From the NCBI RefSeq assembly GCF_965641715.1, contig NZ_OZ282453.1: a stretch of 64,000 nucleotides of DNA. One strand, written 5' to 3'. The position numbers were made by a program, and so were the translations under genes. This DNA comes from Escherichia coli (GTDB taxonomy: Bacteria > Pseudomonadota > Gammaproteobacteria > Enterobacterales > Enterobacteriaceae). Shown here piece after piece: positions 2,268 through 51,732 of this stretch; position 1 is the stretch's first letter, and each line of letters begins with the position of its first letter. The notes under the pieces are model-generated. The model searched no databases. It was not told where the DNA came from and worked only from the letters and a program-made list of their open reading frames with translations.

Positions 2268-2277
2268 GGTGATTTCC

Positions 2278-4296
2278 TTAGACGGCAATAGCGATTAGCA
2301 GCACAACCAGTGCGGCAACCACATACAGGCAATAGAGACGAAAGTCGCCGCTTTGCAGATGCTGTATTTCTTTGGCCAGCCGTTGGGTGGCGCTCACGAT
2401 GGGGCGGATCACCCGCTCATCCCAGAAGGGTTCTGTGCTCTGAGCCCTGGCGGTGACGTGCGCAAGACCTTTATTTAGCCTCAGCGTAGGGTCGAGCTGT
2501 TGTCGTAGACGAAATAGCGCAGAGAAGACCACACGCAGCGGCTGCATCACGCCATTGCCTGACGGGGCCATCGCATTTTCCCAGCCGTAGCCGCATGCCC
2601 AGGCATCTCCTGTGCGACGAAACGCTGCGCGGCGCGAACGACACCACAGCCAGTAAAGGCCAGGCAGCAAAGGCATCGCCAGTAGTAACAGCAACAGTAA
2701 TGAGGGAGTGACCCGTGTATGAAACGTGCCGGGTACAAGTGCTATTCCGCTGGCGACAGTGACGGGAGGGGTATCGGTAAAGGCATGGGCAATATGCATT
2801 ATCTTCGGTGCCAGCCAACTGGCACTAAGCGCAATTAATACGCAGAGTGCCGCGAGCAGTAGCATGGCGACGATCATCGTATTTGGCACTTCCTGTGCCT
2901 CTTCAGCGTGTGTACTGCGCGGCGCACCACAGAAAGTAATACCGTACATTTTGACGAAGCACATTACTGCCAGCCCACCAGTGACTGCCAGCATCACCAT
3001 AGCAATAGGACCCGCAAGTTGTAGCGCTACGGCTTCCACACGACTTAGTGAGAACAGCGACTGCCAGGTGTACCATTCGCTGATAAAACCATTCAGCGGA
3101 GGAAGGGCTGATATCGCGAGGCAACCAATCAGGCATGCTGCGGCTGTCCACGGCATCCGTTTCGCCAGTGCCCCCATTTTTTCCATGTCGTGGGTATGCA
3201 AACGCGAAATAATCGCGCCCGCGCCGAGAAATAGCAGCCCTTTGAACAGCGCATGGTTGAGCAGATGAAACAGTGCGCCGAGCAGTCCAACCACGGTGAG
3301 CAGCGGGTCGTGCAGTGACAGACCGACCATCGCCACACCGACTGCCAGCAAAATAATGCCGACGTTTTCGACGGTACTCCAGGCCAGCAGCCGTTTGATA
3401 TCCTGTTCCGCCAGCGCATACAGCACGCCCAGGAGCGCGGAGATTGCGCCGATCGCCATCACCAGAATGCCCCACCACAGCGGCAAACCCGTTTGCGCCA
3501 GCAGATCCATCGCCACTTTCAGGATGCCGAAAATACCGATTTTGACCATTACGCCAGACATCAACGCCGAAGCGTGCGATGGTGCGGCAGGGTGAGCGCG
3601 CGGCAACCAGCTGTGCAACGGCATCATCCCGGCTTTCGCGCCAAAACCGAAAAAGGCCAGCAGGAACACCGCCGACGCCAGCCCCGGAGAAAGTGAAAGC
3701 GTGCGGAAACTGGCAAAATCGAGGCTGCCGCTTTCGCGCCCCATCAGCAAGAAGGCGATCATAATCAGCACCGATCCGGCGTGGGCGATAAAAAAGTAGA
3801 GCATGCCAGCGTTGATTGACGTTTTATCCTGCCTGGCAATGACCAGAAACCAGGAAGACAGCGACATCATTTCAAACAGCACGATGAACCAAAAAGCGTT
3901 GTCCATCACCAGCAGGGCAACCATCGATGCGATAAAAAGATTCATAAAGAAGCCCATCGCCGCCGCGCCTTTGCCCTCGTATTCGCGCATATAAGTCAAT
4001 GAATAGAGCGAACAAACCACCACAAGCAAGGAGATAACCAGCACCATAAATGCCGAGAGACTATCCATTCGCAGGGTTAAATCGGCAAAGTCAAAAGGGG
4101 TGGCAAAACGGGCGACTAAAGTTACGCCTGCATGTAATTGCGTAATTCCGCTGATGATGCCAATCACGCCGCCCACCAGCGATGTGATGGCGGAAAGCTT
4201 AATAGCCAGTCTGTCCAGACCGAGTAAAAACAGCGAAGCCAGACTGGCAAACAGATAGAGGATCAGCGACCAGGTTAATAATTGCAGGGCATCCAT
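2278..4296 (-). CDS. hyfB: hydrogenase-4 membrane subunit HyfB (NuoL-like antiporter family)
   Basis: 672-aa polytopic membrane ORF; start overlaps the hyfA stop at 4296. Confidence 0.85.
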   Translation of the reverse strand: MDALQLLTWSLILYLFASLASLFLLGLDRLAIKLSAITSLVGGVIGIISGITQLHAGVTLVARFATPFDFADLTLRMDSLSAFMVLVISLLVVVCSLYSLTYMREYEGKGAAAMGFFMNLFIASMVALLVMDNAFWFIVLFEMMSLSSWFLVIARQDKTSINAGMLYFFIAHAGSVLIMIAFLLMGRESGSLDFASFRTLSLSPGLASAVFLLAFFGFGAKAGMMPLHSWLPRAHPAAPSHASALMSGVMVKIGIFGILKVAMDLLAQTGLPLWWGILVMAIGAISALLGVLYALAEQDIKRLLAWSTVENVGIILLAVGVAMVGLSLHDPLLTVVGLLGALFHLLNHALFKGLLFLGAGAIISRLHTHDMEKMGALAKRMPWTAAACLIGCLAISALPPLNGFISEWYTWQSLFSLSRVEAVALQLAGPIAMVMLAVTGGLAVMCFVKMYGITFCGAPRSTHAEEAQEVPNTMIVAMLLLAALCVLIALSASWLAPKIMHIAHAFTDTPPVTVASGIALVPGTFHTRVTPSLLLLLLLAMPLLPGLYWLWCRSRRAAFRRTGDAWACGYGWENAMAPSGNGVMQPLRVVFSALFRLRQQLDPTLRLNKGLAHVTARAQSTEPFWDERVIRPIVSATQRLAKEIQHLQSGDFRLYCLYVVAALVVLLIAIAV

Positions 4297-39132: not shown

Positions 39133-40532
39133 ACACTCGCCAGCTACTGAGCGTCGGTATCGATATCGGCACCACCACCACCCAGGTGATTTTCTCCCAC
39201 CTGGAACTGGTTAACCGTGCGGCGGTGTCGCAGGTGCCGCGCTACGAATTCATCAAACGCGAAATTAGCTGGCAAAGCCCGGTGTTCTTTACCCCTGTCG
39301 ATAAACAGGGTGGTTTAAAAGAAGCGGAACTGAAATCGCTGATTTTAGAGCAATATCAGGCTGCGGGCATTGCGCCGGAAAGCGTTGATTCTGGTGCCAT
39401 CATCATCACCGGTGAAAGCGCGAAAACCCGCAATGCTCGCCCGGCGGTGATGGCGCTCTCTCAGTCGCTGGGCGATTTTGTCGTCGCCAGCGCCGGGCCG
39501 CACCTCGAATCCGTGATCGCCGGTCACGGTGCCGGGGCGCAAACCCTTTCTGAACAACGGCTGTGTCGGGTACTGAATATCGACATCGGCGGTGGCACCG
39601 CGAACTACGCCCTGTTCGATGCCGGAAAAATCAGCGGCACTGCCTGCCTCAACGTCGGTGGTCGCCTGCTGGAAACCGACAGCCAGGGGCGCGTGGTTTA
39701 CGCTCATAAACCGGGGCAGATGATTGTGGATGAGTGCTTCGGCGCAGGCACCGATGCCCGTTCGCTGACCGGCGCGCAGCTGGTGCAGGTTACCCGGCGG
39801 ATGGCAGAGCTGATTGTCGAAGTGATTGACGGAACGCTTTCGCCGCTCGCGCAGGCATTAATGCAAACCGGTTTGCTGCCCGCAGGTGTTACGCCCGAAA
39901 TCATTACGCTTTCTGGCGGCGTGGGCGAATGTTATCGCCACCAGCCCGCCGACCCGTTCTGTTTTGCCGATATTGGCCCGCTTCTGGCAACGGCGCTGCA
40001 TGACCATCCGCGCCTGCGTGAGATGAACGTGCAGTTTCCGGCGCAAACCGTGCGCGCCACGGTGATTGGTGCGGGTGCACATACCCTTTCGCTCTCTGGC
40101 AGCACAATCTGGCTGGAGGGCGTACAACTGCCGCTGCGCAATTTGCCGGTGGCGATCCCAATTGATGAAACGGATCTGGTGGGTGCCTGGCAACAGGCGC
40201 TGATTCAGCTGGATCTTGATCCCAAAACTGACGCGTACGTGCTGGCGCTTCCCGCCTCGCTGCCTGTGCGTTACGCCGCGGTACTGACGGTCATCAACGC
40301 GTTGGTCGATTTCGTCGCGCGTTTTCCGAATCCGAATCCCCTGCTGGTGGTGGCCGGGCAGGACTTTGGTAAAGCTCTGGGCATGTTGTTGCGCCCACAG
40401 CTACAACAACTCCCGTTGGCAGTCATTGACGAAGTGATTGTCCGCGCGGGGGACTATATCGACATTGGTACGCCTCTTTTTGGCGGATCGGTTGTGCCGG
40501 TGACGGTGAAATCACTCGCATTTCCTTCCTGA
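39129..40532 (+). CDS. eutA: ethanolamine ammonia-lyase reactivase EutA
   Basis: 467 aa MNTRQLLSVGIDIGTTTTQVIF...; stop TGA at 40530-40532 abuts the island. Confidence 0.85.
   Translation: MNTRQLLSVGIDIGTTTTQVIFSHLELVNRAAVSQVPRYEFIKREISWQSPVFFTPVDKQGGLKEAELKSLILEQYQAAGIAPESVDSGAIIITGESAKTRNARPAVMALSQSLGDFVVASAGPHLESVIAGHGAGAQTLSEQRLCRVLNIDIGGGTANYALFDAGKISGTACLNVGGRLLETDSQGRVVYAHKPGQMIVDECFGAGTDARSLTGAQLVQVTRRMAELIVEVIDGTLSPLAQALMQTGLLPAGVTPEIITLSGGVGECYRHQPADPFCFADIGPLLATALHDHPRLREMNVQFPAQTVRATVIGAGAHTLSLSGSTIWLEGVQLPLRNLPVAIPIDETDLVGAWQQALIQLDLDPKTDAYVLALPASLPVRYAAVLTVINALVDFVARFPNPNPLLVVAGQDFGKALGMLLRPQLQQLPLAVIDEVIVRAGDYIDIGTPLFGGSVVPVTVKSLAFPS
40525..40532. repeat. left junction direct repeat (att core candidate), overlaps the eutA stop codon
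   Basis: cttcctga, identical to 51725-51732; surrounding 20 bp are imperfectly similar. Confidence 0.5.
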
Positions 40533-40626
40533 ATACTGTAGTTATCAGGCGTGGCGCTGGGTGGCTGGGTGTTAGTGGGATTATATCCGGCTGTGTATCC
40601 GGTCGGGGTGATTGGTCTGTATAGCA

Positions 40627-40647
40627 GAAAACCCGGCGCGGGGCCGG
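40627..40647 (-). terminator. rho-independent terminator of the eutA-proximal cargo gene
   Basis: cccggc gcgg gccggg hairpin with a U tract on the minus-strand transcript; a near-identical copy is at 42316-42337. Confidence 0.6.
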
Positions 40648-40655
40648 GTGAACTA

Positions 40656-41216
40656 TCACTCAGGGAACAAGTTGATTTGAAGCAAACTGCCAATGTATTT
40701 ACCAGTGCTTTTAATTTTTCGCTTTGATGGCTTACACGAATTCAGGTTGACACCAGCCTGGCTAGATATTGGCTTGTATTGCCGCTCCGCCAGTACGATC
40801 AGGTCTGCCGCGTCTTTTAGCTTTCCATCGTTAGCCAGTTCCAATGCTCGATCCGCCATTTGCCCGCATTGTTGAATCAGCTTAAGTTGCGATACCTCCA
40901 GTCGCAATTGCTGGATTCGTTCTACCACTTTCGCCCTAATGCGCTTAGTTTCACGCATTCCCATTCTTAATGCCTGGTTGCCAGTAAGTGAGTAAACCTC
41001 TTTTTCTTTCCTGAAGTTTGCGGCTTTACCGTCAGCTTGGACGCGCATTTTATGCGCTTCCAAGAATTCGCCCTCCAATTCATCCCTGATCTTCGCGTTG
41101 AATCTGTCGTTCTTGAGTTCATTTAACCCTTCCGCCTTGCGGATCTGGTTGATTAACTCCAACAATTCATCACTGCGGATACGCCACTCGCTATCAACCT
41201 GTACCAAGTCAAACAT
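40656..41216 (-). CDS. hypothetical protein (island cargo); function unknown
   Basis: ORF track 40656..41309 begins at a TTG; the internal ATG at 41216 (MFDLVQVDSEWRIR...) has a GGGAG Shine-Dalgarno 6 nt upstream, giving 186 aa; basic C-terminus; own terminator. Confidence 0.55.
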   Translation of the reverse strand: MFDLVQVDSEWRIRSDELLELINQIRKAEGLNELKNDRFNAKIRDELEGEFLEAHKMRVQADGKAANFRKEKEVYSLTGNQALRMGMRETKRIRAKVVERIQQLRLEVSQLKLIQQCGQMADRALELANDGKLKDAADLIVLAERQYKPISSQAGVNLNSCKPSKRKIKSTGKYIGSLLQINLFPE

Positions 41217-41380
41217 GTTGTTGCTCCCGTTTTGCTGCCATAGGGCAACGGCTCGCCAGCCTTTATCACCTCCTTTAGTTGTTGCGATTCTTAACTGAAT
41301 GGTTATCAAAACGCTGCGTTAATATCATTGATATGTATCAAATTTGTTTTGTGACGCGACAATGCCTTGTGAATATCAAT

Positions 41381-41404
41381 AAAAAACCCAGCGCTATGGC
41401 TGGG
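41381..41404 (-). terminator. rho-independent terminator of the HTH cargo gene
   Basis: cccagc gctatg gctggg hairpin with a U tract on the minus-strand transcript. Confidence 0.55.
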
Positions 41405-41437
41405 CTTCGTTTAATGAGATGGGATTGAAAGCGGGTT

Positions 41438-42220
41438 TTATTTATCTCCCAGATTGTATTCCCAGTTGGGAAGTAAAGTTATCAGCTTGTCACCTTTCTT
41501 GCCTTTGCCGATCTGGTTGCCGTTCTCGTCTTTCTTGTGTGTGATTTCCTGGTCAACCTTAATCAATCCTCTCTCTTTGGCTTGCTCAATCAGTCGGTAG
41601 AATGCGCCGTTACTAATCGGCTTCCGGTTACCGTCGTTATCCATCGCAGTGATTTTCTGTTGCAGTCCGGCGTTATTGCCCAGGTATTCGCCACCTAACG
41701 CCGCCAGTACCTGACACAACATGCCGACACTGTATTTTTTCGGATTTGGGTTAATCCATTCTTTAGCTCCCATCTCTTTTTTGTCGTTGGGCGCTTGTTC
41801 TGCTGCTACTGCGTTCACCTTTTCATCTCCCATCTTGTTACCGCTTGCTGTGCGCTTAATTTCTTCCAGTTCTCTCTCAAGCTCACCTATACGTAATTCA
41901 CGCTCGATAATTACCCCGCGCAGCACATCATCATCACCGTGAGGGCTTGCCTGAATCCAGTTACCATTGGCGAGCGGTAGGAGGGCATAAATTCCGAACA
42001 GGTCACAAAGCGCGGCAAGTGTATTAAAATCAGGTTCCCGGCGTCCCTCCATCCAGTGGCTAACAGCGCCTTTTGTGACTGGTTCGCCTTTCTTGCTTTT
42101 AACACCCATGCGATCCAGTGCGGCGGCTATCTCTTCGCATTTAATGCCACGACCGCCAGCATAGCCCGCCGCTTTCGCGGCCCCTTTGAGGATGTCGTGA
42201 ATTTTCATTTCGTAACTCAT
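41438..42220 (-). CDS. XRE/Cro-C1-type helix-turn-helix domain protein (island cargo)
   Basis: ORF track 41438..42235; preferred start is the second ATG (MSYEMKIHD...) with a GGGAGA Shine-Dalgarno; HTH-like segment IKCEEIAAALDRMGVKSKKGEPVTKGAVSHWMEG; coiled-coil middle; Lys/Gly-rich C-terminus. Confidence 0.6.
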   Translation of the reverse strand: MSYEMKIHDILKGAAKAAGYAGGRGIKCEEIAAALDRMGVKSKKGEPVTKGAVSHWMEGRREPDFNTLAALCDLFGIYALLPLANGNWIQASPHGDDDVLRGVIIERELRIGELERELEEIKRTASGNKMGDEKVNAVAAEQAPNDKKEMGAKEWINPNPKKYSVGMLCQVLAALGGEYLGNNAGLQQKITAMDNDGNRKPISNGAFYRLIEQAKERGLIKVDQEITHKKDENGNQIGKGKKGDKLITLLPNWEYNLGDK

Positions 42221-42226
42221 AATTTT

Positions 42227-42257
42227 ATCTCCCATCTCATGAACTATGGTGGGAGAT
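42227..42257. promoter_or_regulatory. perfect 8-bp inverted repeat (atctccca N15 tgggagat) over the start region of the HTH gene
   Basis: Arms at 42227-42234 and 42250-42257; one arm contains the Shine-Dalgarno and first ATG of the minus-strand gene; tgggagat recurs at 42958-42965. Confidence 0.45.
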
Positions 42258-42315
42258 TAACACGGCGGGCCTGTGGCGGGTAAGTGTAACGGGAGAGAAT
42301 GTTGATTCAGGTCAC

Positions 42316-42337
42316 AAAAACCCGGCGCGGGGCCGGG
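42316..42337 (-). terminator. rho-independent terminator of the 158-aa cargo gene
   Basis: cccggc gcgg(g) gccggg hairpin with a U tract on the minus-strand transcript. Confidence 0.6.
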
Positions 42338-42359
42338 CTGTGTTAGTACGTCGTTGCTC

Positions 42360-42836
42360 TTAGTTCATGAGGAGATCTTTAAATTCGACGCCGTATTCAT
42401 GGGCAATGTCGCCTCTATAGTAGATGTTATCTTTCAGGATATATCCGACGTTTCTCAGGACGTGAGAACACTCTCTTACTGCTGCCTCTTTACCCCTTAA
42501 AACATCCTCCCCGCTAACTTCTTCGCCGCTGTACTTCACTGCGATGTTGTCTGCTGCACGCTCTGCTGCTTCCAGGCAATTAATCTTCACTTTTCCCCGA
42601 TTCTCCCAGGCAAAATCGCGGCCATAAATCCCCATTGCATCAACCATCTTTTGCGCAGTAGTGCGCTCATCCACCCATTCAGTGCGTTCGAACTTCTCGC
42701 CAGCAGCTACCCTTGCCGCCAGTTGTTCGTGTTGAGTCTGTACGGCCGCAGCCTCTTCTTCCCATTTGCCTTGCTCGTTGTATACGATGAAGCCAGTGAT
42801 GACTGCAGCGATTAGTAACTTGTCCAGAAAATTCAT
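42360..42836 (-). CDS. membrane-anchored hypothetical protein (island cargo)
   Basis: 158 aa; AGGAGG Shine-Dalgarno 5 nt upstream of the ATG; single N-terminal hydrophobic helix LLIAAVITGFIVY followed by a charged soluble domain. Confidence 0.6.
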   Translation of the reverse strand: MNFLDKLLIAAVITGFIVYNEQGKWEEEAAAVQTQHEQLAARVAAGEKFERTEWVDERTTAQKMVDAMGIYGRDFAWENRGKVKINCLEAAERAADNIAVKYSGEEVSGEDVLRGKEAAVRECSHVLRNVGYILKDNIYYRGDIAHEYGVEFKDLLMN

Positions 42837-43120
42837 AGCTTCCTCCTATCTGTTCAATTACCCGGCATCTCTTGCCGTTGAACGTATTAAACAAAATGCC
42901 AGTCAGGGATAAAGCGATCTGCGTCATAAAGTCCATCCCCCATCTCATTGATATTGATGGGAGATTGTTTAATTGGTCAGAAATTAAGCGTTTATGTGCG
43001 CTGCCGGGTATCCACCTCCTATCTGAAGATGGAAAGATGGGTGATATAATGTGATGGCAATTGGTGGATTGCGTGGTTTTTACAATGATAAGGGGCTGGC
43101 GTAATGCTGGCCCCTTTGTT

Positions 43121-43162
43121 TATCCGGTATCCGGTATCCGGTATAAGCGGGCGTGTATCCGG
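43121..43162. repeat. cluster of four tatccgg motifs (three tandem 7-mers plus one)
   Basis: tatccggtatccggtatccggtataagcgggcgtgtatccgg; related copies at 40584-40602 and, inverted, at 51558-51565. Confidence 0.5.
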
Positions 43163-43356
43163 TAGCGGGGATATGGGCGCGTGTACGTGAAATCTGGCAA
43201 ATTAGCAGGGTAATTGTGAGGGAATTTTTGCGTAGGAGCGTTTGTGGCTGGTAGCTCAAAATTGAGCTTTGCTTTTCATTCAATGACTTAGGTTAATTCT
43301 AGCAAAACGCTAGGATTGAATGTCCGCCAGTCTGCTTCCCCTAGCGTGGGATTTGG

Positions 43357-45723
43357 TCAACGTCTGCGCGGCTGCAAAATTCCTCCGGGTCGTTGTGATT
43401 CACGCTGCATCAGTCGCATCGCTGTGTTTTCTATGGTCTGCTGCAGCGCTTTTGAGTCTTCCTCTGTCCAGCCGTTGTTAGCCTGGATGTTGAACGTATT
43501 GTTCATCGTGATTCCGCCACCGCCTACCAGATCGCGGCCCGGTGTAACTCGTCCACCTTCACCCGGGATCATGTACTGTTTCCCGCCAGTGGATGTAAAT
43601 AGCTCCGGTACTCCGTGCTCCCCGACCCTATAAAGATTGCCACCGTTAACAGCCCCGCCGTTGTAACGAGCGCCAGCCAGTCCAAGCGTTTTGGCGGCAG
43701 CTACGCCAGTAGTAAGCCCGGTAAGTCCAGTGGCCCCAGCGCCGCCCATCGTGGCTACGTTAGCCAGGTATGCAGGAGTGGCCCACGCCGATCCTAATGC
43801 TGTAGCCTCTGCTAGTGCTTTAGCTGTTGCGGCTGCGTTTGCGGCTTCACCAATTAGCTGCTGTTTAACCCACTCAGCACCCATCTGGACAATGCCACCG
43901 ACCACAGAAGACAGGATCGTACTGCCAACGTTGGCAAGTGACTCTTGCAGCGATTGAGTACCGTTTATCAGTCCGGTAAATGCGCTGCCAGCGCCAGACG
44001 ATAACCCATCGACCATATTCCCGATGAGGCCATTTATATCGCTTTGTTTCTTCCACTGCTGCCACTGGAGATCCAGAACCCTTTGTTCATGTGCGATCTC
44101 TTCCTGGCGCAACTGCTCTTCGGTAGCCCCAAGATCTAGAAGCATTTGCTTGCGAACAGCCCATTCATTTTGGATCTTCTGTATTGGGTCAATCTGAGCT
44201 TTCTGCTTATCCTGCTCACTGACAAGACTGTCCCATTTCGCTTTCTGCTTGCGGATGGCTTCAGCTTCATCAATTGCTGCGAGTGTACTTGCTCGCTGTT
44301 TCGCGCTGATCAACCGTTTCTGCTCAGCCGCTTCCAGGTCTTCTACTGCTTTTTTCCGTTTATTGAGCGCCGCTAGTTCGGGATCGTATTTTTCCACCAA
44401 TGAAAGGCCGCTTGCTTCCTTACGTTCGCGTTCTCTTTGTGCCTGTTTGGCTGCCTGCTTAGCGGCGTTTTCTGCTTGTTTGGCTGCTCTTTCTTTCGCC
44501 CTGGTGTTCTCTTCTTCCTTGCGCTTATTCTCTTCTAACTCCTTGTTTTGTTCGCGTAATTTAACGATTTCCTCATGATGCGCCTTTGTCAGCTGGCCTT
44601 CTTTCAGTGCCCGATCTATATCAGCGTTTGCGTTGCCTTTTAGCTGTTCCTGTTTAACTTGCAGATGTTTAATCATCATTTCGCCAGTGGCAATCGCTGC
44701 CGCAGACGCTCCAGCATTCAGAGCTTCATTTAACGCTCTCTGACGTTCTTCTGCTGTTAATGCCTCGTTGCTGTATCGAAGTAGCGCATCAACGTATTTC
44801 TCCAGTTCTGCGCGGCCTGCCGCAGTTGCTGGTTCCATTGCTTTTAGGATGCTCAGAAGGCTTTGCGCTTCATAGGAAGACGGGTTTTTGCGGAACTGCG
44901 CCATAGCGTTATAAAGCGCCATAGCTTCACCCTCTGTGATTCTGTACTTAGCTCCCAGCCCTTCAATGACCGCTGATAACTGTTTGCCAAGCGCTGCACC
45001 GAATGCGCCTTCCTTGCTTAATTTGTTGAGCACTTCACTCAGTGAATTTCCTGACACGCCCAGCGCGTCGAGTTCTCTTGCTACCGTTCCCAGGTCGCCG
45101 CCTTTCATCCATCCTGCATTAGAAAATTCAGTGATAGCCCGGCCCGCTTCCCGCGTTTCTTCCTGGAGTGTTTTTAGCGCCCGCACGGCCTGCTCTTTCA
45201 TTACGGCGGCGGCAATGGCGTTGTTCTGTGTGGCTTCGTAATATGAATCACTGAAAGCGTTAACGCCCTGGGTGGATTTGCCGATCACGGCGTCGATTGA
45301 TGCTAATGCCTCCTTCATCCTTTCAGCGCTATCCGTTGCGTCGTCCATGCTGTCCGTTAGGCTGTTGGCAATCGCCCCGCCAATAGCCATCACCGCCCCC
45401 ATGACCGCACCGCCAGTACCGAAGGCAGCGGCAAGTTGTGCACCCTGCACAGCGAACGCCTGGAGCGCATTACCGCCCATCTGCAATTGAGTGGCAAGGT
45501 CTGCGATCTGGTATGATGCGTTACGGATTGCCGGGGAAAGGTTGGTTTTGACTGCGGCAGACGTTTTGGTCATCTGCGTGTTCAGTTTTTTGACGCCACT
45601 GTCAGCGCGTTTTGCGCCGCGTTCTATACTGTCAAAAGCCTGGTCCGCTTCTTGTTGTGCTGCCAGGAGTTTACCAGTACGGGCGTCGACCTCATAGTAT
45701 ATGGTCCCAAGATTCCCACTCAT
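43357..45723 (-). CDS. phage tail tape-measure protein, lambda gpH-like
   Basis: 788 aa; N-terminal Gly/Ala-rich hydrophobic segment (GGAVMGAVMAIGGAI); long Ala/Lys/Glu/Gln-rich coiled-coil centre; C-terminal Gly-rich region with NLYR and NNTFNIQ motifs resembling the lambda H C-terminus as recalled; no Walker A motif. Confidence 0.7.
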   Translation of the reverse strand: MSGNLGTIYYEVDARTGKLLAAQQEADQAFDSIERGAKRADSGVKKLNTQMTKTSAAVKTNLSPAIRNASYQIADLATQLQMGGNALQAFAVQGAQLAAAFGTGGAVMGAVMAIGGAIANSLTDSMDDATDSAERMKEALASIDAVIGKSTQGVNAFSDSYYEATQNNAIAAAVMKEQAVRALKTLQEETREAGRAITEFSNAGWMKGGDLGTVARELDALGVSGNSLSEVLNKLSKEGAFGAALGKQLSAVIEGLGAKYRITEGEAMALYNAMAQFRKNPSSYEAQSLLSILKAMEPATAAGRAELEKYVDALLRYSNEALTAEERQRALNEALNAGASAAAIATGEMMIKHLQVKQEQLKGNANADIDRALKEGQLTKAHHEEIVKLREQNKELEENKRKEEENTRAKERAAKQAENAAKQAAKQAQRERERKEASGLSLVEKYDPELAALNKRKKAVEDLEAAEQKRLISAKQRASTLAAIDEAEAIRKQKAKWDSLVSEQDKQKAQIDPIQKIQNEWAVRKQMLLDLGATEEQLRQEEIAHEQRVLDLQWQQWKKQSDINGLIGNMVDGLSSGAGSAFTGLINGTQSLQESLANVGSTILSSVVGGIVQMGAEWVKQQLIGEAANAAATAKALAEATALGSAWATPAYLANVATMGGAGATGLTGLTTGVAAAKTLGLAGARYNGGAVNGGNLYRVGEHGVPELFTSTGGKQYMIPGEGGRVTPGRDLVGGGGITMNNTFNIQANNGWTEEDSKALQQTIENTAMRLMQRESQRPGGILQPRRR

Positions 45724-46012
45724 AATATCTTTATCCGCGTTGTGCGGACACCTCCGATTATTCTTTACTCTAATAATTTCACAATGAAACAGTTTATTGC
45801 CGCTTCAGTGGCTTCGTGTTCCGGTTTGCTTCGATCAATCACAAAAAATACAGCTTAATAGAATCAATGGCTTATAAAGTTGTATTAGCTATGTTTCTTC
45901 GTCCGTGCCACTGAAAACCCAGTTTTTCCAATGGAATCAATACTGATATGTATCCATACTGTTTTTCACATAATGTACGTTATGCGCACTACGGGAAACG
46001 TACTGAATTTAT

Positions 46013-46243
46013 TTACTGGTCGCCGTTCAGTTCATGCAGAGTCTGTTCTGGCAATGAATCCAGCCAGTTTTCTGCATCCTCCCTGTAACACTCCAGGATG
46101 CAACGGTTTGTGAAGTTGATGAAAGCGGTCAGTGATTCTGCTTCGTCGTTCCTGTGCGTTCTCCTGGCGTGCTTGCGTAGTCGTTTCGCGTCTGCCAGTT
46201 GGTCATTGAGTATCTTCAGTCTGTCGGCAATATCATCGTTCAT
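46013..46243 (-). CDS. hypothetical small protein
   Basis: 76 aa; GGGAGA Shine-Dalgarno 6 nt upstream of the ATG. Confidence 0.45.
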   Translation of the reverse strand: MNDDIADRLKILNDQLADAKRLRKHARRTHRNDEAESLTAFINFTNRCILECYREDAENWLDSLPEQTLHELNGDQ

Positions 46244-46430
46244 GTCGTCTCTCCCTCGCGCGCGCGTCGTACTTGTCCGAAAATTACCCCCATAAAAGCG
46301 CCCCTCATATAGTGCAAAATCCCGGCTGACGCGGATCTCAGTGGGTTTTAGCAGTGAAAACTGACATCAAAAACGGCTCGCTAAGGTCCGCTAAGTATCC
46401 GCTATCGTTCGCTAACCCCCCGCTAACCTA

Positions 46431-46796
46431 TTAGATATCGCATCCAACGCTATTGAGCTGGCTATGTATATCGGCGCGAATTAACTTCAGGCGTTTACAA
46501 AATTCGCGTTCTTCCGAATTAAGCTCGCGGCCACCTTGTTTCGAGGCAATGAGCTTGTTGATGGTGGAAAGCGAATATTCACTCCATATACGAAGCATTT
46601 GTCGCTTCATTGGTTGCTCGCTCAATGGTGAGTTTTTCAGGTCTGACACGCGCTCTGCGACGGTTCTTGCGATGCCTTGTACCACTCGTAGTGCCAACAT
46701 GATGATTTTCTCCGGACTTGTGCTAATATAGTTCCCGAACATTGTTTCGAGACTGCTTATCCTGTTTGTCTTGTCCGATTTGTTCATTGGTCGCAT
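46431..46796 (-). CDS. hypothetical protein
   Basis: 121-aa ORF in the same orientation as, and closely spaced with, the upstream 180-aa ORF. Confidence 0.45.
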   Translation of the reverse strand: MRPMNKSDKTNRISSLETMFGNYISTSPEKIIMLALRVVQGIARTVAERVSDLKNSPLSEQPMKRQMLRIWSEYSLSTINKLIASKQGGRELNSEEREFCKRLKLIRADIHSQLNSVGCDI

Positions 46797-46838
46797 TGTT
46801 AAGTCAGCCGGGGTAATTCCCGGCTTTCTTTTATCCGA

Positions 46839-47381
46839 TCAGTACCGAATCCCTATCGCATTGAATACGCGTTTCCGTTGCTCAGCTTCAGGATCGGCGG
46901 CCATTTCTGGTTCTGGCTCCGGCATAGACGGGGCGGCATCAAAATGCTCAATTTCACGACCGAAATACGAGTTCAGGTCAATACCTGCCGAACTATCCAC
47001 TCCATCAAAATAGCGACGCTGTTCCTCGGTGAGACAGCTACCCAGACGTTCCTCAACCTGCGCCATAAACTCAGCATCCGGTGAGAAGTACTCATCCGGA
47101 GTCGGAGCACCGCTCTGTTTGTGCATCTCCATTTTCTCTGCGTTCGTTTTCAGCCCGGCAATGCGTTTCTCCAGTCCGGCGGCTTTAATAGCGTCAGCAA
47201 CGATTTGTGGGATCTGCGGTTTAATTATTTCGATAACTTCATTGCTGATTAATTTAAACTGGGCCATACGGATCGCTTTAATCTGCTTATTTAACAGTGC
47301 GCGTTCCCCTTCGTTGGCGGTTTTATCACGCTGTGCTACCAGTTCATCGCCTTTGTTTGTCAGTACATCAAATGCGTCCAT
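46839..47381 (-). CDS. hypothetical protein
   Basis: 180 aa; strong GGAGGAGG Shine-Dalgarno 7 nt upstream; acidic Pro/Glu-rich C-terminal tail; 17 nt downstream of the 108-aa ORF. Confidence 0.55.
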   Translation of the reverse strand: MDAFDVLTNKGDELVAQRDKTANEGERALLNKQIKAIRMAQFKLISNEVIEIIKPQIPQIVADAIKAAGLEKRIAGLKTNAEKMEMHKQSGAPTPDEYFSPDAEFMAQVEERLGSCLTEEQRRYFDGVDSSAGIDLNSYFGREIEHFDAAPSMPEPEPEMAADPEAEQRKRVFNAIGIRY

Positions 47382-47398
47382 TGTCTTTCCTCCTCCGA

Positions 47399-47725
47399 TT
47401 ATTTAAAAGTGCTTATTGACACGCCGAAACGACGACTTAATTCAAAAAGGAGTCGCGCCTTTGCAGTGCCTTCCATGTCTTCCGGCATTTCAGACTGAAG
47501 TTTATCAGCTACTTCATCAACAAGTGGCCGAACCGTTTCCACGAACTTGTCCGCAATATAATCAGCAGAACGCATCACTTTTTCCTGGAATTCCTCACGG
47601 CGTACCTGGGCGGCTGATTTAGGGGCTGTCGTGCGCTGAAAATAACTGTCTAATGAATGCATGGCATCTGCTCCTTTTACTTTGATTGCTGTTATTTCTT
47701 TAATTGTGTTTGCTTTGATTTTCAT
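47399..47725 (-). CDS. hypothetical protein
   Basis: 108-aa ORF starting 76 nt downstream of the AlpA-like gene. Confidence 0.5.
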   Translation of the reverse strand: MKIKANTIKEITAIKVKGADAMHSLDSYFQRTTAPKSAAQVRREEFQEKVMRSADYIADKFVETVRPLVDEVADKLQSEMPEDMEGTAKARLLFELSRRFGVSISTFK

Positions 47726-47801
47726 GCTGCCTATTCCTTCAGAAATTGCGGTAGTTTGCTTTTTAAATCAATAAGTTATTTGATAATCTCAGTAGCTGTT
47801 T

Positions 47802-47993
47802 TCATTGGTGGCGAGCGCCTTTGTTTTTATAGAATTCCAAAATCTCAGATCGGATAAACTTAATTCTTGAGCCAATCGGACTGACCGGGACGGGCCAGCC
47901 TTTAATCTTGTTCATCCACCGGAATATTGTCCGACGGGTAACGCCGAATAAAGCTGCTACCTCGTTAACCGTCATTAATTCGCTATCATTCAT
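47802..47993 (-). CDS. excisionase / AlpA-family DNA-binding protein
   Basis: 63 aa; HTH MTVNEVAALFGVTRRTIFRWM typical of excisionase-family domains; GAGGTGA Shine-Dalgarno. Confidence 0.7.
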   Translation of the reverse strand: MNDSELMTVNEVAALFGVTRRTIFRWMNKIKGWPVPVSPIGSRIKFIRSEILEFYKNKGARHQ

Positions 47994-48003
47994 GTTCTCA
48001 CCT

Positions 48004-48046
48004 CAAAAAGTAGCGGTGAGGAAAATATGGAGAAAACCCTCACCGC
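48004..48046 (-). promoter_or_regulatory. terminator-like hairpin in the leader of the AlpA-like gene (candidate attenuator)
   Basis: Minus-strand RNA reads GCGGUGAGG, 16-nt loop, CCUCACCGC, UACUUUUU, then GAGGUGAGAAC AUG; the 3' arm could alternatively pair with the Shine-Dalgarno. Confidence 0.45.
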
Positions 48047-48220
48047 GCCCTGAATGAAATTAAAGACCAACATTACTGTTGATACTTATTATTATATTCC
48101 TCCTGTCCCTGTTTCACATCTTTTACCATATAGTGAAAGGGGATATTCTGTAATGTTTACAAAACTTTTAATTAGCAAAAAATAATTGCGCATCTCACGT
48201 AATGCAGGGATAATATTACT

Positions 48221-48306
48221 CAAGGGCTGGTTGCCCTTACTCAAAATGTGATCTATAACTACAACGATCTATTTCACTTCCCCGCTTTCTCCGGCGGGAT
48301 TTTTTT
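48221..48306 (+). ncRNA. candidate small RNA (~86 nt), divergent from the AlpA-like operon
   Basis: Promoter-like TTGCGC (48186-48191), 17-bp spacer, GATAAT (48209-48214); internal hairpin agggctggttgccct; terminator cccgc tttctccg gcggg plus T7 at 48281-48306; no ORF. Confidence 0.4.
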
Positions 48307-49115
48307 GCCTGCAATCTGGCACCATTGCGCACATTAAAATTAGATGCCATTTAAAAGCGATATAACGCGTTCTGCCGGGCTTAATTTTGGCTATCCACTT
48401 GGAAGGGTAAGCCTGTTTTGATTCGTCTGGCGTGGAATGGTGCGGCGGTAATATCAGATCTCAGCGTTCTGCGTGGTGGGATGAAATAGCCTGGCAGGAT
48501 TTGCGTGTGGTTTGCTCTCCCAAAAAATGGGGTAATGGCGCTGGCTGGATGGCAGGACTCCGCGCTGATTACTGGATGGCTGAAAATTTAATGAAATCGC
48601 ATCAATTTTAATGCGTCTAAATCGCTCTGTGGCGACGTGAAGTTTTCAGGTAAGCAAGTGTAGCTGTGTGGTGTGTTCATCGCGTTACTGGCACCATTCC
48701 GTTCGAATTTGGCGCTATCAGGATGGTTTGCGGTGGTCGGCGGCGGGGATAAACTTGCTTGAGTGGTCACCTCAGCCTGCTGTGCGTCGTGTGATGGTAC
48801 TGTCTGCACCTGGCTATACGCTGCTTTGCTGCTGTTTCCTGTCTGGTCTGTATACGCGATAAAACCCATCGGCTTTACAGTGAGTGAGTTTTTTGCGCTT
48901 TGCTTTCCATTCGGTTTGCTTACTGCTGCTGTGTGTCTGTGCGGTAGCTCAGAAAGCTGTCGATGATAACCATCACTGCCAGACCGTCTTTTGAGCTGGC
49001 GATTGCTCGAAGTCTTCCGAAGGTCCGCTGGGCTTGTTGCTTGTTTGTGTTCTTTTAAAATGCGCGCCTCTTACTTTCTCTTAAAAAGAAAAAAGGAATA
49101 TACAGATCTCATACT

Positions 49116-49275
49116 ATGTGTGTCCCAAATGTCACACGTCATGGCCTGACCTGTATCCCAAATGTCACACGTCACCCTCTGACCTGTATCCCAAATGTCA
49201 CACGTACCTGTGTCCCAAATGTCACACGTCTATTGTTAATTAATTGTTGACCTGTGTCTCAAATGTCACACGTCT
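49116..49275. repeat. iteron array: five direct repeats of about 22 bp
   Basis: Copies start at 49116, 49149, 49182, 49206, 49250 (spacings 33, 33, 24, 44 bp); core cccaaatgtcacacgt; AT-rich ttgttaattaattgttga between copies 4 and 5. Confidence 0.7.
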
Positions 49276-49292
49276 GTTGATGGTTTAAGTAA

Positions 49293-49319
49293 TAAAAAGG
49301 GCCACCATTTTAGGTGACC
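49293..49319 (-). terminator. rho-independent terminator of the wHTH gene
   Basis: gggccacc atttta ggtgaccc hairpin (one G-U pair) with a U tract on the minus-strand transcript. Confidence 0.5.
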
Positions 49320-49338
49320 CATTGATGCGTTTTAGTCG

Positions 49339-50103
49339 TTATCTTGCGTTCTCGACCTGAAAAAGCATTCTGTATTTTCTTGCGTGCTGACCAATAACAT
49401 ATTCCCCGTATGGCTCAATGAGTCCTAACTCAACCAGGATTTTCATCTGGCGAATTACGGTGCGGCGATTCATGCCCCATTCATCAGCTATTTTTGCCTG
49501 GCAAACTTCAGATACATAAGATCCATCATTCTGCTTTCTTGCTGCTGATGCAATGCTGGATAATACGCTCCAGGCTGTAGCTTTAGCTTTATTCTCGCAA
49601 CCACTTCTGACAAATGCCTTACGTGCCGCACCCAAACAGACATAACTGCAATAAATTCCTTTTTCTTCCGTTTGGTATTGTGTCTCTTTATCCTGCATGG
49701 CTTCCGGTTCTTCCGGCGCTTCCTGCTGTGGTGCTGTCTGCGAAGTTTTAGCGGCCATACTGCGTAGCTCGTTCACGATATCAGTAGCTGATTTCTTCTC
49801 GCTTTTAGTTTCCTGCGTGACTGATAAATACTCACCTTGTAACGCCAGGAAGTCAGCGCGGGCGTTTGCCTGGCTTTGTTCTGGTGATTCAGGTTCTGCA
49901 TCGGCAGGTGATGAAATCGGTGATACACGCGCCCAGCCTGTTTTGGCGTTGCATTCCCAGCGATAACCATTAAAGCGGATATCATTCAGGCCATCATCAA
50001 TGGCGCTCCGTACTTCTTCCGGGATCGCGTCGATTTTCTGAAGGCTGTGTTTACCGAGTGATTCGCCTTGCCGTGGGGCGTAGGCGGTTGGTAAAATATT
50101 CAT
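49339..50103 (-). CDS. winged-helix DNA-binding protein, putative replication initiator or repressor
   Basis: 254 aa; AAGGAGA Shine-Dalgarno; acidic low-complexity middle; C-terminal HTH-like EVCQAKIADEWGMNRRTVIRQMKILVELGLIE; iteron array immediately downstream. Confidence 0.5.
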   Translation of the reverse strand: MNILPTAYAPRQGESLGKHSLQKIDAIPEEVRSAIDDGLNDIRFNGYRWECNAKTGWARVSPISSPADAEPESPEQSQANARADFLALQGEYLSVTQETKSEKKSATDIVNELRSMAAKTSQTAPQQEAPEEPEAMQDKETQYQTEEKGIYCSYVCLGAARKAFVRSGCENKAKATAWSVLSSIASAARKQNDGSYVSEVCQAKIADEWGMNRRTVIRQMKILVELGLIEPYGEYVIGQHARKYRMLFQVENAR

Positions 50104-50315
50104 GTGGGATTTCTCCTTTTTACTTGTTTCCCATATCGCCCGGATTGGTTAGCGGCCTTCCGGGCTTTTTGTTGCGTTGATCCTATTTTCGATCCCCGGA
50201 TTTTTTATTACAAACTTGGCTTAATCATTGATTTTATTGGTATAGCTGTATAAAAGGATAACAGGATAAAAGGGTGATAGATTGTGTAACCTGTTAACCT
50301 TTTATACCAGTAAGG

Positions 50316-50342
50316 CGAAAGAAAAGCCGGACGAATCCGGCC
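50316..50342 (-). terminator. rho-independent terminator after the integrase gene
   Basis: gccgga cgaa tccggc hairpin with a U-rich tract, 8 nt past the integrase stop. Confidence 0.5.
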
Positions 50343-50349
50343 TTATAGT

Positions 50350-51555
50350 TCACGGCTCCAGCGGATTACCGCCACCAGCCAATATCTGGTCGATGGCGTC
50401 GCTGTAGTCCTGCATCATGGCCCGCCGTTGCTTCAGATAGGCCGCCTGGTTATAAACGCCGCGCACACCTTTCGGAACGTGGGCCAGTTGGATTTCGATC
50501 CAGTCTGGTGAGTATCTGCCGTACTCGTTAAGTGCGGTTGAAAAGGTGGTTCGCCAGCCGTGACCAGTGGCTATCGACTTGTATCCGATACGCTCCAGGG
50601 CTTTAAGGATGGCACTGGCTGAAAGTGGCTTATCCATGAATCGACCAGGGAACACAAAAGCACTGTATCCGCTGCGGGTAAACTGGTCCTGTAATAGCTC
50701 GACCGCCTGCCGGGATAGCGGGACCACATGCGGGCGGCGGGCCTTCATGACTTCAGCGGGTAGGGTGATGGTTGCCGATTCCAGATCTACCCACTCCCAG
50801 CGCATTAAACGCAGTTCTGCGGTCCTTAGGGCGCTTAATATAAGCAAACGTATTGCCGTCTGAATCTGAACGCTCCCGGCTCTCTCAAGGGCTTTGTAGA
50901 AGGCCGGGATTTCGTTAATTTGTATCCATGCGTTATGGCCTGGGCGTCGGGCTTTCAATGCCGTGTCCAGATCTGCAACCGGATTTCGGTTAACCAGTTC
51001 AGTGATAACGGCAAATTTGAAGATTTCCCCTATACGCTGCCGTAATTTTCGGGCCTGTTCCGGCGCGGTGCGCTCTTTCTTCTGAAGCAATGCCAGCACG
51101 TCACGGGCCGTTATATCGACAATCGACCGCTTGCCAAGTACCGGATAAACATCTTTCTCCAGTGCCGATCTAACTTGTTTCGTGTAAGACTCAGACCAAC
51201 CGCTCACTCTGGTAGCAAACCAGTCTTCCGCTACCGTCTTAAAACTTGCCGCCATGTTGAGCGCATCAATGGCTTTCTCCTTGCGCGCTTCTTCCATTGG
51301 GTCAATTCCCTGGGCGATGAGTAAACGGCTCTCTGTGGCGCGTTTACGTGCTTCCTTCAAGGTAATCAGCGGATATACCCCAATAGCCTGTAACCGCTCT
51401 TTCTTGTCTATCCAGTACCGGAATCGCCAGTATTTGCTGCCATTGGGATGTACCAGCAAGAACAGGCCAGGTGTCTGTGAATCGGTGAGTTTGTAGGGCT
51501 TGTCCTTCGGCTGGGCGGCCTCTATGCCCTTTGCTGTCAGTGGTGTCTTGCTCAA
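50350..51555 (-). CDS. P4-type tyrosine integrase (site-specific recombinase), intZ-like
   Basis: 401 aa; N-terminal arm-binding domain (PYKLTDSQTPGLFLLVHPNGSKYWRFRY); C-terminal catalytic region with the HGWRTTFSTALNE and RGVYNQAAY motifs. Confidence 0.85.
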   Translation of the reverse strand: MSKTPLTAKGIEAAQPKDKPYKLTDSQTPGLFLLVHPNGSKYWRFRYWIDKKERLQAIGVYPLITLKEARKRATESRLLIAQGIDPMEEARKEKAIDALNMAASFKTVAEDWFATRVSGWSESYTKQVRSALEKDVYPVLGKRSIVDITARDVLALLQKKERTAPEQARKLRQRIGEIFKFAVITELVNRNPVADLDTALKARRPGHNAWIQINEIPAFYKALERAGSVQIQTAIRLLILSALRTAELRLMRWEWVDLESATITLPAEVMKARRPHVVPLSRQAVELLQDQFTRSGYSAFVFPGRFMDKPLSASAILKALERIGYKSIATGHGWRTTFSTALNEYGRYSPDWIEIQLAHVPKGVRGVYNQAAYLKQRRAMMQDYSDAIDQILAGGGNPLEP

Positions 51556-51724
51556 AACCGGATACCTCGATCTAACGACTCGATAACCCCGCTCATGTAT
51601 CCGTCGCGTTCGGTTGCGTTCGGCAGGATAAGTAACGGGCGTATTAAGTGGAACACCTTACAGGACAAGGGATAACGATGAAATAGAATTGTTCGAATGC
51701 TGTGAAAAATGTTACTCATCACTT

Positions 51725-51732
51725 CTTCCTGA
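51725..51732. repeat. right junction direct repeat (att core candidate), immediately 5' of the eutB ribosome-binding site
   Basis: cttcctga, identical to 40525-40532; followed by gggaacgactt ATG (eutB). Confidence 0.5.

Follow-up and report, generated by a model that had tools for sequence, protein, structure and literature searches.

Within the window, a 64,000-nucleotide stretch of Escherichia coli DNA (contig NZ_OZ282453.1), an island between eutA and eutB carries a gene whose product is a full-length homologue of siphophage tape-measure proteins (TMPs). The island belongs to what is apparently an undescribed family of small mobile elements of E. coli that resemble phage satellites; no description of this family was found in the literature searched. 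The reading that we favour, with about even confidence and on the strength of sequence comparison and analogy, is that the family is satellite-like, with the TMP as its conserved terminal gene, and that this TMP would enter tails built by a helper phage. The same even confidence covers, jointly with that reading, the gene itself, for which a functional tape-measure gene appears to be the best explanation. Homology, a fixed gene position, selection, cassette exchange, satellite-type genes, autonomous replicons and a circular form were observed in the family. The island and its TMP gene are located as follows.

40533 to 51724, minus strand: whole island, 11,192 bp between eutA and eutB (the CPZ-55/intZ site), with every gene on the minus strand.
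43357 to 45723, minus strand: TMP gene, 788 residues, ATG start, no internal stop codon.

The predicted protein matches the PHROG family phrog_1538, 'tail length tape measure protein', with E = 8e-112, residues 1–774 aligning on positions 1–799 of the 811 in the profile. A PDB sequence search gives chain M of entry 9occ, which is gp18, the TMP of Shigella siphophage Sf11 (E = 1e-41, residues 72–746), and Pfam TMP_2 is matched weakly (E = 1e-5). The initial annotation had recognised a tape-measure protein from the letters alone, and the features it relied on are all located in the protein: a Gly/Ala hydrophobic segment at residues 94–124, a helical and highly charged centre at about residues 350–550, a C-terminal part with a Gly content of 24% over residues 651–750, and the motifs NLYR at residue 696 and NNTFNIQ at residue 741. 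Judged by profile, structure-database match and architecture, the open reading frame (ORF) is a genuine full-length siphophage TMP homologue.

The nearest phage TMPs are those of the coliphages mEp013, mEp515, mEp010 and mEp021 and of Shigella phage Sf11. Island TMPs share 52–60% identity with the mEp coliphage TMPs over the terminal parts, and the C-terminal 174 residues of the window TMP are 73% identical to mEp013; the central ~300 residues are not alignable with the mEp proteins. Full-length homologues with 31–33% identity are found in real siphophages. The proposed assignment to the lambda gpH type holds only for the company the gene keeps in phages: the mEp013/mEp021 group has lambda-like tail-tip genes M, L, K, I and J, but the nearest TMPs are those of mEp013/mEp021 and Sf11.

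In the Sf11 structure the TMP is ordered only at its extreme C-terminal helix, which is embedded in the tail-tip hub (PMC12724387). The C-terminal ~200 residues of the island TMP align closely with the Sf11 TMP of this solved tail, and by position relative to Sf11 only, the C-terminal helix of the island protein would be placed in the tail tip. The end that is positionally equivalent to the hub-embedded helix ranks with the most variable stretches of the island TMPs; such a variable C-terminus would fit alleles matched to different helper tips.

A TMP-derived protein might also serve outside the virion, for example in a membrane or DNA-entry function for an episome or as a toxin-like effector. 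What speaks for such a role is that the Gly/Ala segment (94–124) and the most constrained region (100–350) are not alignable with the closest coliphage TMPs. However, the match to the virion TMP family profile is full-length, and so are the homologues in real siphophages; the C-terminus aligns closely with the TMP of a solved tail, and a search of the protein for an enzymatic or secretion domain detected none. We regard a role outside the virion as very improbable.

The TMP gene has no other tail gene beside it. A 76-residue ORF (46013..46243) follows after 289 bp on its upstream side, and a 158-residue ORF (42360..42836) after 520 bp on its downstream side. No PHROG match to tube, chaperone, tip or baseplate families was found among the other island proteins searched (all except the integrase), and the NCBIfam search of the island proteins gave a name to the integrase alone. 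The ORF map and these searches thus bear out the orphan setting first described. A tail-cluster context, between chaperone and tip genes, was found neither in the island nor in any relative. In the phages L006 and L022 the TMP gene lies within a full cluster (terminator, tube, chaperone-position gene, TMP, M, L, K, I, J). Homologues in tail clusters are only distant, with at most 60% identity over partial length, as in phage mEp013 and the mEp013-like prophage of strain M15. Close relatives occur in the same kind of element and never in a tail cluster; complete clusters around close relatives with truncated copies elsewhere, the arrangement that the initial annotation had set against its own proposal, were looked for and not found.

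The island is, as its sequence organisation indicates, a compact integrative element and not a prophage remnant. Its ends were set by comparison with the empty eutA/eutB site of O157 Sakai, where the two alignments overlap by 8 bp, and its G+C content is lower than that of its surroundings. In the direction of transcription, the island presents the integrase, the Rep-like gene, the iterons, a gene-poor stretch, the AlpA-like gene, four small proteins, the TMP and a 2.6-kb block of three genes. The features outside this last block are the following.

40525 to 40532: left 8-bp direct repeat CTTCCTGA (att core), overlapping the eutA stop codon.
51725 to 51732: right 8-bp direct repeat CTTCCTGA (att core), from the comparison with the empty Sakai site.
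50350 to 51555, minus strand: tyrosine integrase IntZ, 401 residues, intact (NCBIfam NF007246, E = 1e-74).
49339 to 50103, minus strand: Rep-like putative initiator, 254 residues, with a C-terminal helix-turn-helix (HTH) domain; weak PHROG matches to replication-initiation families, iterons adjoining.
49119 to 49285: five iterons of ~22 bp (TGTGTCCCAAATGTCACACGTC), putative replication origin, adjoining the Rep-like gene.
48257 to 48872, minus strand: conserved blocks 48583–48872 (overlapping a 93-residue ORF of doubtful coding) and 48257–48503, with 74–87% identity to islands and episomes.
47802 to 47993, minus strand: AlpA-like HTH regulator or excisionase, 63 residues, first gene of the operon (phrog_66, 'excisionase and transcriptional regulator', E = 1.7e-9).
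47399 to 47725, minus strand: core operon protein fam2, 108 residues, in all eight elements compared.
46839 to 47381, minus strand: core operon protein fam1, 180 residues, with repeated (E/Q)YF(D/G)G motifs (gene-by-gene comparison and alignment).
46431 to 46796, minus strand: core operon protein fam3, 121 residues, in all eight elements compared.
46013 to 46243, minus strand: fam11, 76 residues; most relatives have a TerS-like and an unknown gene here instead.

The integrase scores 251.6 bits, under the curated cut-off of 434 bits for NF007246, and is 92–97% identical to intZ in relatives. Counterparts of the Rep-like protein in episomes carry HTH_36. The gene-poor stretch of about 1.1–1.3 kb (48000–49100) separates the iterons from the AlpA-like gene and houses both conserved blocks. 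The AlpA-like gene was found in all elements compared. Its homologues have precomputed Pfam matches to HTH_17 (as in L015/L017) or MerR, mostly weak, so the protein is described by its likeness to AlpA and not as a member of Pfam Phage_AlpA. The neighbouring core proteins gave no meaningful match in PHROGs, NCBIfam, PADLOC or PDB sequence searches, and fam11 had no family match in PHROGs or NCBIfam. The only PADLOC-DB v2 matches for the TMP and its neighbours were weak HTH-type ones on AlpA-like proteins.

The exact 8-bp att duplication, the intact integrase and the Rep-like gene with its iterons argue that the island is not a decayed prophage. The initial annotation had placed the gene in a decayed element and taken simple incomplete decay as its null hypothesis, that is, a lambdoid prophage in which the TMP is the last surviving tail gene. 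The classing of the K-12 element at the same site, CPZ-55, as a cryptic prophage would agree with this, and some copies are indeed damaged, with an intZ pseudogene in L001 and disruption by insertion sequence (IS) elements in L002. Yet no tube, tip, capsid or lysis remnant occurs in any relative, and the compact architecture, AlpA-like regulator included, recurs at other sites and in integrase-less relatives, one of them a closed circle. The real prophages with homologous TMPs (L006, L022) look entirely different. Strong purifying selection on the TMP, described below, and close relatives that are always orphaned lead us to reject the null; we consider decay extremely improbable.

CPZ-55 of E. 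coli K-12 (intZ, yffL–yffS), a cryptic prophage at eutA/eutB, is only about 6.8 kb. It shares the integration site and the integrase family with the island. Islands at eutA/eutB that have no TMP share 47% of the window island at ~94% identity; they are presumed to be CPZ-55-like, and they are not among the TMP-gene megablast matches listed. The window element is probably the fuller form, and CPZ-55 a reduced relative.

Eight elements were compared gene by gene, and further islands and 10 metagenome contigs were examined besides. The elements are about 9–12 kb, and all family members have a one-directional operon headed by the AlpA-like gene together with a Rep-like gene with iterons. The common operon runs AlpA-like, (HNH), fam2, fam1, fam3, (TerS-like and unknown, or the 76-residue gene), (Neck1), TMP and variable cargo. 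The TMP is intact and at the same operon position in all eight elements, in the further islands and in the 10 metagenome contigs, where the contig extends far enough. Most relatives encode an HNH endonuclease and a TerS-like protein, the latter matching phrog_1482 with E down to 4e-14, and some encode a tail-completion protein (Neck1, HK97 gp10-like; phrog_5, E = 2.7e-12). Capsid, portal, large terminase, tail tube, tail tip and lysis proteins are encoded in none of the relatives examined. The window copy is a reduced variant in which the HNH and TerS-like genes are lost and the integrase, Rep, iterons, AlpA-like gene and TMP are kept; the metagenome contig L028 has the same Rep type as the window together with HNH and TerS-like genes.

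The same operon is also found at the ychJ/rssA site, where the integrase is just 31% identical. Three contigs of ~11 kb (L007, L009 and L010) have no integrase. L009 is a closed circle, with a terminal overlap of 119 nt, equal to the k-mer size of the assembler, and 82x coverage; L007 and L010 break within their own iterons. Not all ~11-kb contigs can be counted as episomes: intZ stands at the start of L014, a truncated intZ at that of L013, and circularity is proven for L009 alone. The iterons of the circular relatives are CCAAAAATGGGCTACC in L007 and L010 and CCCCAAAATGACCTACC in L009. Because these differ from those of the window island, the replicon modules appear to have been swapped while the layout was kept.

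At least 76 of 5,426 complete E. coli genomes contain the family, and up to 321 contain it in part; a few O157:H7 strains are among them. A megablast search with the TMP gene finds a match in 83 of the complete genomes. In one O157:H7 strain with the island (PV15-279, L005 24824–27498), the adjacent eutB is split by IS1203 and eutQ has an internal stop, and in O157 Sakai, which has no island, the eut operon is intact. In strain USDA-ARS-USMARC-49610 (L001 11803–13723) the right junction is damaged and both intZ and eutB are truncated, which would lock this copy in place and inactivate ethanolamine ammonia-lyase; its 733-residue TMP is intact.

The TMP gene is maintained by strong purifying selection, as the initial annotation had suspected from its uninterrupted frame. 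Every pair among seven genes of the 788-residue type gives a dN/dS of 0.10–0.20 at a dS of 0.4–2.8, with omega of ~0.045 in residues 100–350, and the 732/733-residue pair gives 0.117. A protein search returned more than 57 TMP clusters (90% identity), all from E. coli, 69–100% identical to the window protein and 784–791 residues in length, and the alignment of the 788-residue type has only ~8 gap columns. A ruler function fits this constancy of length over ~30% amino-acid divergence. The TMP is intact in every element with a full ORF examined; shorter homologues (470–669 residues, mostly on short contigs) could be truncations at contig ends.

At least four TMP types occur in the family, of about 788, 726, 732/733 and 729 residues. 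Three of them are at most 40% identical to the window type overall or alike only at the ends, the 729-residue type having been compared indirectly via metagenome relatives. L001 has a backbone 99% identical to the window and yet a 733-residue TMP, 96% identical to that of O157:H7 PV15-279. C-terminal modules of ~120 residues are shuffled among the types. In the food metagenome contig L024 (6641–9010), the TMP shares 81% identity with the window type over its first ~626 residues and 65% with the 732-residue type at its C-terminus; this recombinant protein is direct evidence that the types exchange parts as mosaics. Recent exchange with phages is also indicated, as the 3′ end of the L021 TMP gene is 91% identical to mEp013 DNA.

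The TMP gene is flanked by two conserved non-coding elements, named here UP and DN, the second of which adjoins a repeat cluster.

45724 to 45990, minus strand: UP, 267 nt, directly 5′ of the TMP start codon.
43176 to 43240, minus strand: DN, 65 nt, 3′ of the TMP gene, with 88–98% identity across family members.
43090 to 43182: hairpin with a 12-bp stem (43090–43116), then a GTATCCGGT repeat cluster (43117–43182).

As the alignments indicate, the TMP types are swapped like cassettes behind UP. This element precedes four different TMP types and keeps 84–92% identity in all 10 relatives examined, at a TMP dS of about 1, where synonymous sites are saturated. It occurs in 76 of the 5,426 complete genomes, single-copy in all and annotated in none. 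An exact-match probe from UP had no hit in 100,044 species-representative genomes, from which diverged relatives could escape; with this result the module seems restricted to strains of E. coli. UP–TMP–DN is almost the sole DNA-level similarity that links the window island to the circular episomes. In L007, UP sits 5′ of the Neck1 gene, which argues that it heads the entire tail module; in L018 and L021 the TMP is not directly preceded by a UP gap, that position being the one examined for it.

A structured RNA, a known RNA family and phage-derived DNA were each rejected as identities for UP: its RNA fold has z = -0.16, no Rfam match was found at E<=1, and blastn returned no match in 50,697 phage records. 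UP contains a single sigma-70-like site, not above chance. Its candidate roles are those of a late promoter or activator site, of a cos/pac site and of a handle for recombination. On the other side of the gene, the first ~40 nt past the TMP stop (43316–43356) are conserved like DN, and the cargo types diverge past DN. Two independent Logan contigs, L008 and L011, stop within this 3′ region (DN and 43316–43356), which suggests an assembly-graph branch point common to co-resident elements.

A gene under such selection could still be a captured late gene with little or no current function, a passenger hitch-hiking in a 'late zone' like that of phage-inducible chromosomal islands (PICIs). Capture of late genes from the helper is documented for the dynamic late zone of Gram-negative PICIs (PMC10111431), and the C-terminal modules of the TMP are common to phages. 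However, a passenger would not be expected to be universal and fixed in position over highly diverged elements, replicon types and integrases, with a dN/dS of about 0.1–0.2 over a dS of about 1 and an intact ORF wherever the full TMP ORF was examined. In L016 an IS1 InsA fragment, an acyltransferase gene and a ParC-like ORF (1740–3356) are inserted between the 76-residue gene and the TMP. The TMP of this element is the window's allele, and its ORF is intact despite the IS and acyltransferase inserted just upstream. A mere passenger is quite improbable.

The closest functional parallel is the satellite PLE of Vibrio cholerae. The PLE-encoded TMP replaces that of phage ICP1 in PLE virions (PMC11838301 / PMC12987554). 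Like the island, PLE (PLE11/PLE4) has its own TMP, lacks most tail genes and lives in the setting of a phage-defence arms race, and its TMP variants, like those of the island family, fall in distinct sequence groups. PLE has a lytic myovirus as its helper; the island TMP, in contrast, is related to siphophage TMPs, and PLE and the island have no sequence relationship. The mycobacterial EPIP satellites also have a TMP gene without tail proteins, and their TMP is proposed to affect tail assembly (bioRxiv 10.64898/2025.12.02.691453). They differ from the island in having a serine integrase and capsid, scaffold and head-tail adaptor genes, and in their Actinobacteria hosts. EPIP tails are much longer than those of the helper; in contrast, the island TMP matches those of candidate helpers in length, with 726–791 residues in islands and 735–737 in mEp013 and the L022 prophage. 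Altered tail length, one purpose that the initial annotation had put forward, is unlikely because the island TMPs are about as long as the nearest phage TMPs.

In architecture the family is nearer to the Gram-negative PICIs of the EcCICFT073 type, which are 10–20 kb in size, with an integrase at the end, an AlpA-type regulator and one-directional transcription (PMC6092414, PMC6739421, PMC10111431). The window island has all three of the latter traits. Further likenesses between the PICIs and the family are a repeat-containing origin, packaging redirection (TerS-like or Rpp), defence cargo at the ends and late-gene capture. Gram-negative PICIs use a primase, whereas the island has none and instead has a Rep-like HTH initiator with five adjacent iterons; unlike PICIs, the family also has circular members without integrase. 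The island and episome proteins searched gave no PHROG or Pfam match to the P4 core genes (psu, delta, sid, alpha primase) or to the set of capsid-forming PICIs (cfPICIs; capsid, portal, connector, TerL). SatelliteFinder lists tail genes as 'forbidden components' of PICIs and cfPICIs (PMC10085698), while the TMP is a universal core gene here, so SatelliteFinder would reject the family. The family thus differs from the known TMP-encoding satellites in its host, in its architecture (no chaperone or hub; Rep and iterons; integrated and circular forms) and in its TMP cassette exchange.

The satellite reading can be put as a sequence of steps. Replication of a siphophage with a lambda-like tail tip in the cell would switch on the operon, and the element's TMP would be made. 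This TMP would replace the phage TMP in tails built from the phage's tip complex, chaperones and tube, and the chimeric tails would serve the transfer of the element, on the model of Vibrio PLE. Among known phages, the mEp013/mEp021 group is the closest. In HK97, DNA entry and superinfection exclusion reportedly depend on the TMP. Following this dependence and the logic of PLE11 and the anti-tail factor Rta, the benefit that we consider most likely would be escape from defences or superinfection exclusion aimed at the helper's TMP and DNA-entry route; the element might also gain by titrating the tail tips of the helper. We infer induction, packaging, TMP incorporation and the benefit to the element from these comparisons; for excision, replication and packaging induced by a helper, the intact att repeats and the closed-circle relative are evidence of an indirect kind only.

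The candidates that were tried for a helper did not yield one. A resident mEp013-like helper was sought by co-occurrence and rejected: such prophages, recognised by their TMP, are in 2 of 5,426 complete genomes, and neither is among the island carriers listed (36 of the 76 UP genomes being unlisted). The TerS-like protein was no better guide to a helper, its matches being remote, with 30–42% identity, and mostly from Pseudomonas and Ralstonia phages. A separate lead equated the island itself with Sp16 of O157 Sakai, whose content seemed alike: an integrase, defective replication and one tail function, with neither excision nor packaging (Asadulghani et al. 2009). The island is not Sp16; the eutA/eutB site of Sakai is empty, and the negative induction data of Sp16 therefore do not apply to it.

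Several results weigh against a satellite that uses helper tails. The rarity of mEp013-like prophages just described is one of them, and the TerS-like protein is without a close coliphage relative. The window variant has no TerS-like or HNH gene and hence no evident packaging route, and no cos, promoter or RNA signature could be recognised in UP. Besides its TMP, PLE has genes for a tail-assembly chaperone and a baseplate hub, and experiments have shown all three to be incorporated into virions; PHROG and Pfam searches detected neither chaperone nor hub in the island and the relatives searched, though a remote homologue is possible. The function of the PLE protein was shown by western blot, mass spectrometry and transmission electron microscopy, and the island family is known from sequence alone. 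The circular form was not found in complete E. coli genomes or in PLSDB: no E. coli plasmid in PLSDB has the island TMP, and the complete genomes hold no plasmid copy. Finally, the IMG/VR viral contigs contain no close relative, only one weak and unrelated locus.

The main rival to the satellite reading is a defence that poisons tails. The TMP would then be a dominant-negative decoy that engages the phage's chaperones and tip, so that tails are defective or missing, and the element itself would not be transferred. Such a decoy would protect the bacterial population, with an outcome analogous to that of Tai, Tab and Rta. These systems, borne by satellites or prophages, target the assembly of siphophage or myophage tails, frequently via the TMP; Rta has 80 residues and no TMP homology (PMC11838301), and none is reported for Tai or Tab, whereas the island protein is a full-length TMP homologue. 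That defences borne by satellites and prophages are known to interfere with tail assembly (PMC11364771, PMC10884400, PMC11838301) favours a decoy, as does the defence-type cargo of islands at the eut site (an AIPR family protein and a YafO toxin). No resident helper accompanies the island in the genomes listed, packaging genes are absent from the window variant, and the great diversity of alleles and the swapping of cassettes are in keeping with an arms race. A decoy, however, needs interaction surfaces only, yet all 788 residues including the ruler region are under selection and the length is conserved. The TMP is linked to genes for TerS-like, HNH and tail-completion proteins and to autonomous replicons, which points to particle formation, and no PADLOC model matches. 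A decoy and the building of chimeric tails may also coexist, as both occur in PLE. On balance a pure decoy seems rather unlikely, although it is a serious contender.

Going one step beyond the satellite reading, we tentatively propose, with clearly less than even confidence in the proposal as a whole, that these elements form an unrecognised class of E. coli satellites, integrated and as plasmid-like circles of ~11 kb, whose hallmark is a self-encoded, cassette-exchangeable TMP offering a route of DNA entry other than the helper's. Helper tails would receive the TMP of the satellite and sometimes its tail-completion protein as well; the altered DNA entry might bypass superinfection exclusion and defences that target the TMP. 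UP would be a late-activation or packaging site, and satellite finders would be blind to the class.

The paper on Vibrio PLE knew of no other satellite reported to encode a TMP (PMC11838301 / PMC12987554), and a 2025 preprint adds the TMPs in mycobacterial EPIPs (bioRxiv 10.64898/2025.12.02.691453). If the E. coli elements work like PLE, hijacking of the tail interior would be a general satellite strategy and not a Vibrio oddity, and the genetic system that is best developed would be open to its study. A blind spot in censuses would come to light as well, in that the standard tool, which excludes PICI candidates with tail genes, would miss the family systematically. The TMP controls DNA entry, and exclusion and defence systems target it; swappable TMP cassettes could therefore influence the range of cells that the elements and their cargo reach. 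If the decoy should prove true instead, a full-length TMP acting as an anti-phage decoy would be a new defence mechanism.

The block past DN differs among islands that are otherwise alike. In the window it holds three genes.

40533 to 43116, minus strand: accreted or cargo module of three genes, delimited by repeats, terminators and the junctions of relatives.
42360 to 42836, minus strand: cargo gene, 158 residues.
41438 to 42235, minus strand: cargo gene, HTH protein of 265 residues.
40656 to 41309, minus strand: cargo gene, 217 residues.

GTATCCGG motifs lie near both island ends, with arm-like motifs in the cargo module at 40582–40612, and a third cluster lies just 3′ of the TMP, at 43117–43182. 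The GTATCCGGT repeats are likely to be arm-type sites of the integrase that mark where the core element originally ended. The TMP and DN directly abut eutA in L004 and L005. This junction and the GTATCCGG cluster 3′ of the TMP argue that the leftmost 2.6 kb is accreted cargo and that the TMP is the terminal gene of the core. The cargo module had no PADLOC match. A terminator-like hairpin of 21 nt, AAAACCCGGCGCGGGGCCGGG, is present in identical copies 3′ of the 158-residue gene (42317–42337) and of the 217-residue gene (40628–40648), with a 71% identical copy 3′ of the 265-residue gene (41383–41403). The cargo may have been assembled from cassettes with a common terminator.

Three minor features concern the expression and products of the operon. 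Within UP, a conserved hairpin, TCCGC-acaa-GCGGA (45724–45760, minus strand), lies between a GGAGG and the TMP ATG. The GGAGG is Shine-Dalgarno-like but stands ~27 nt from the ATG, and folding of the hairpin would bring both together; the hairpin may be a feature of translational control. Every family member has 3–5 (E/Q)YF(D/G)G repeats in fam1, which is represented by two ORFs in the circular elements; the protein looks like one of low complexity whose motifs bind in tandem, perhaps to a phage target that is multimeric. An inverted repeat of 21 nt with an 18-nt spacer and 90% complementarity (50248–50307), situated between the integrase and Rep-like genes, may be an operator or regulatory site.

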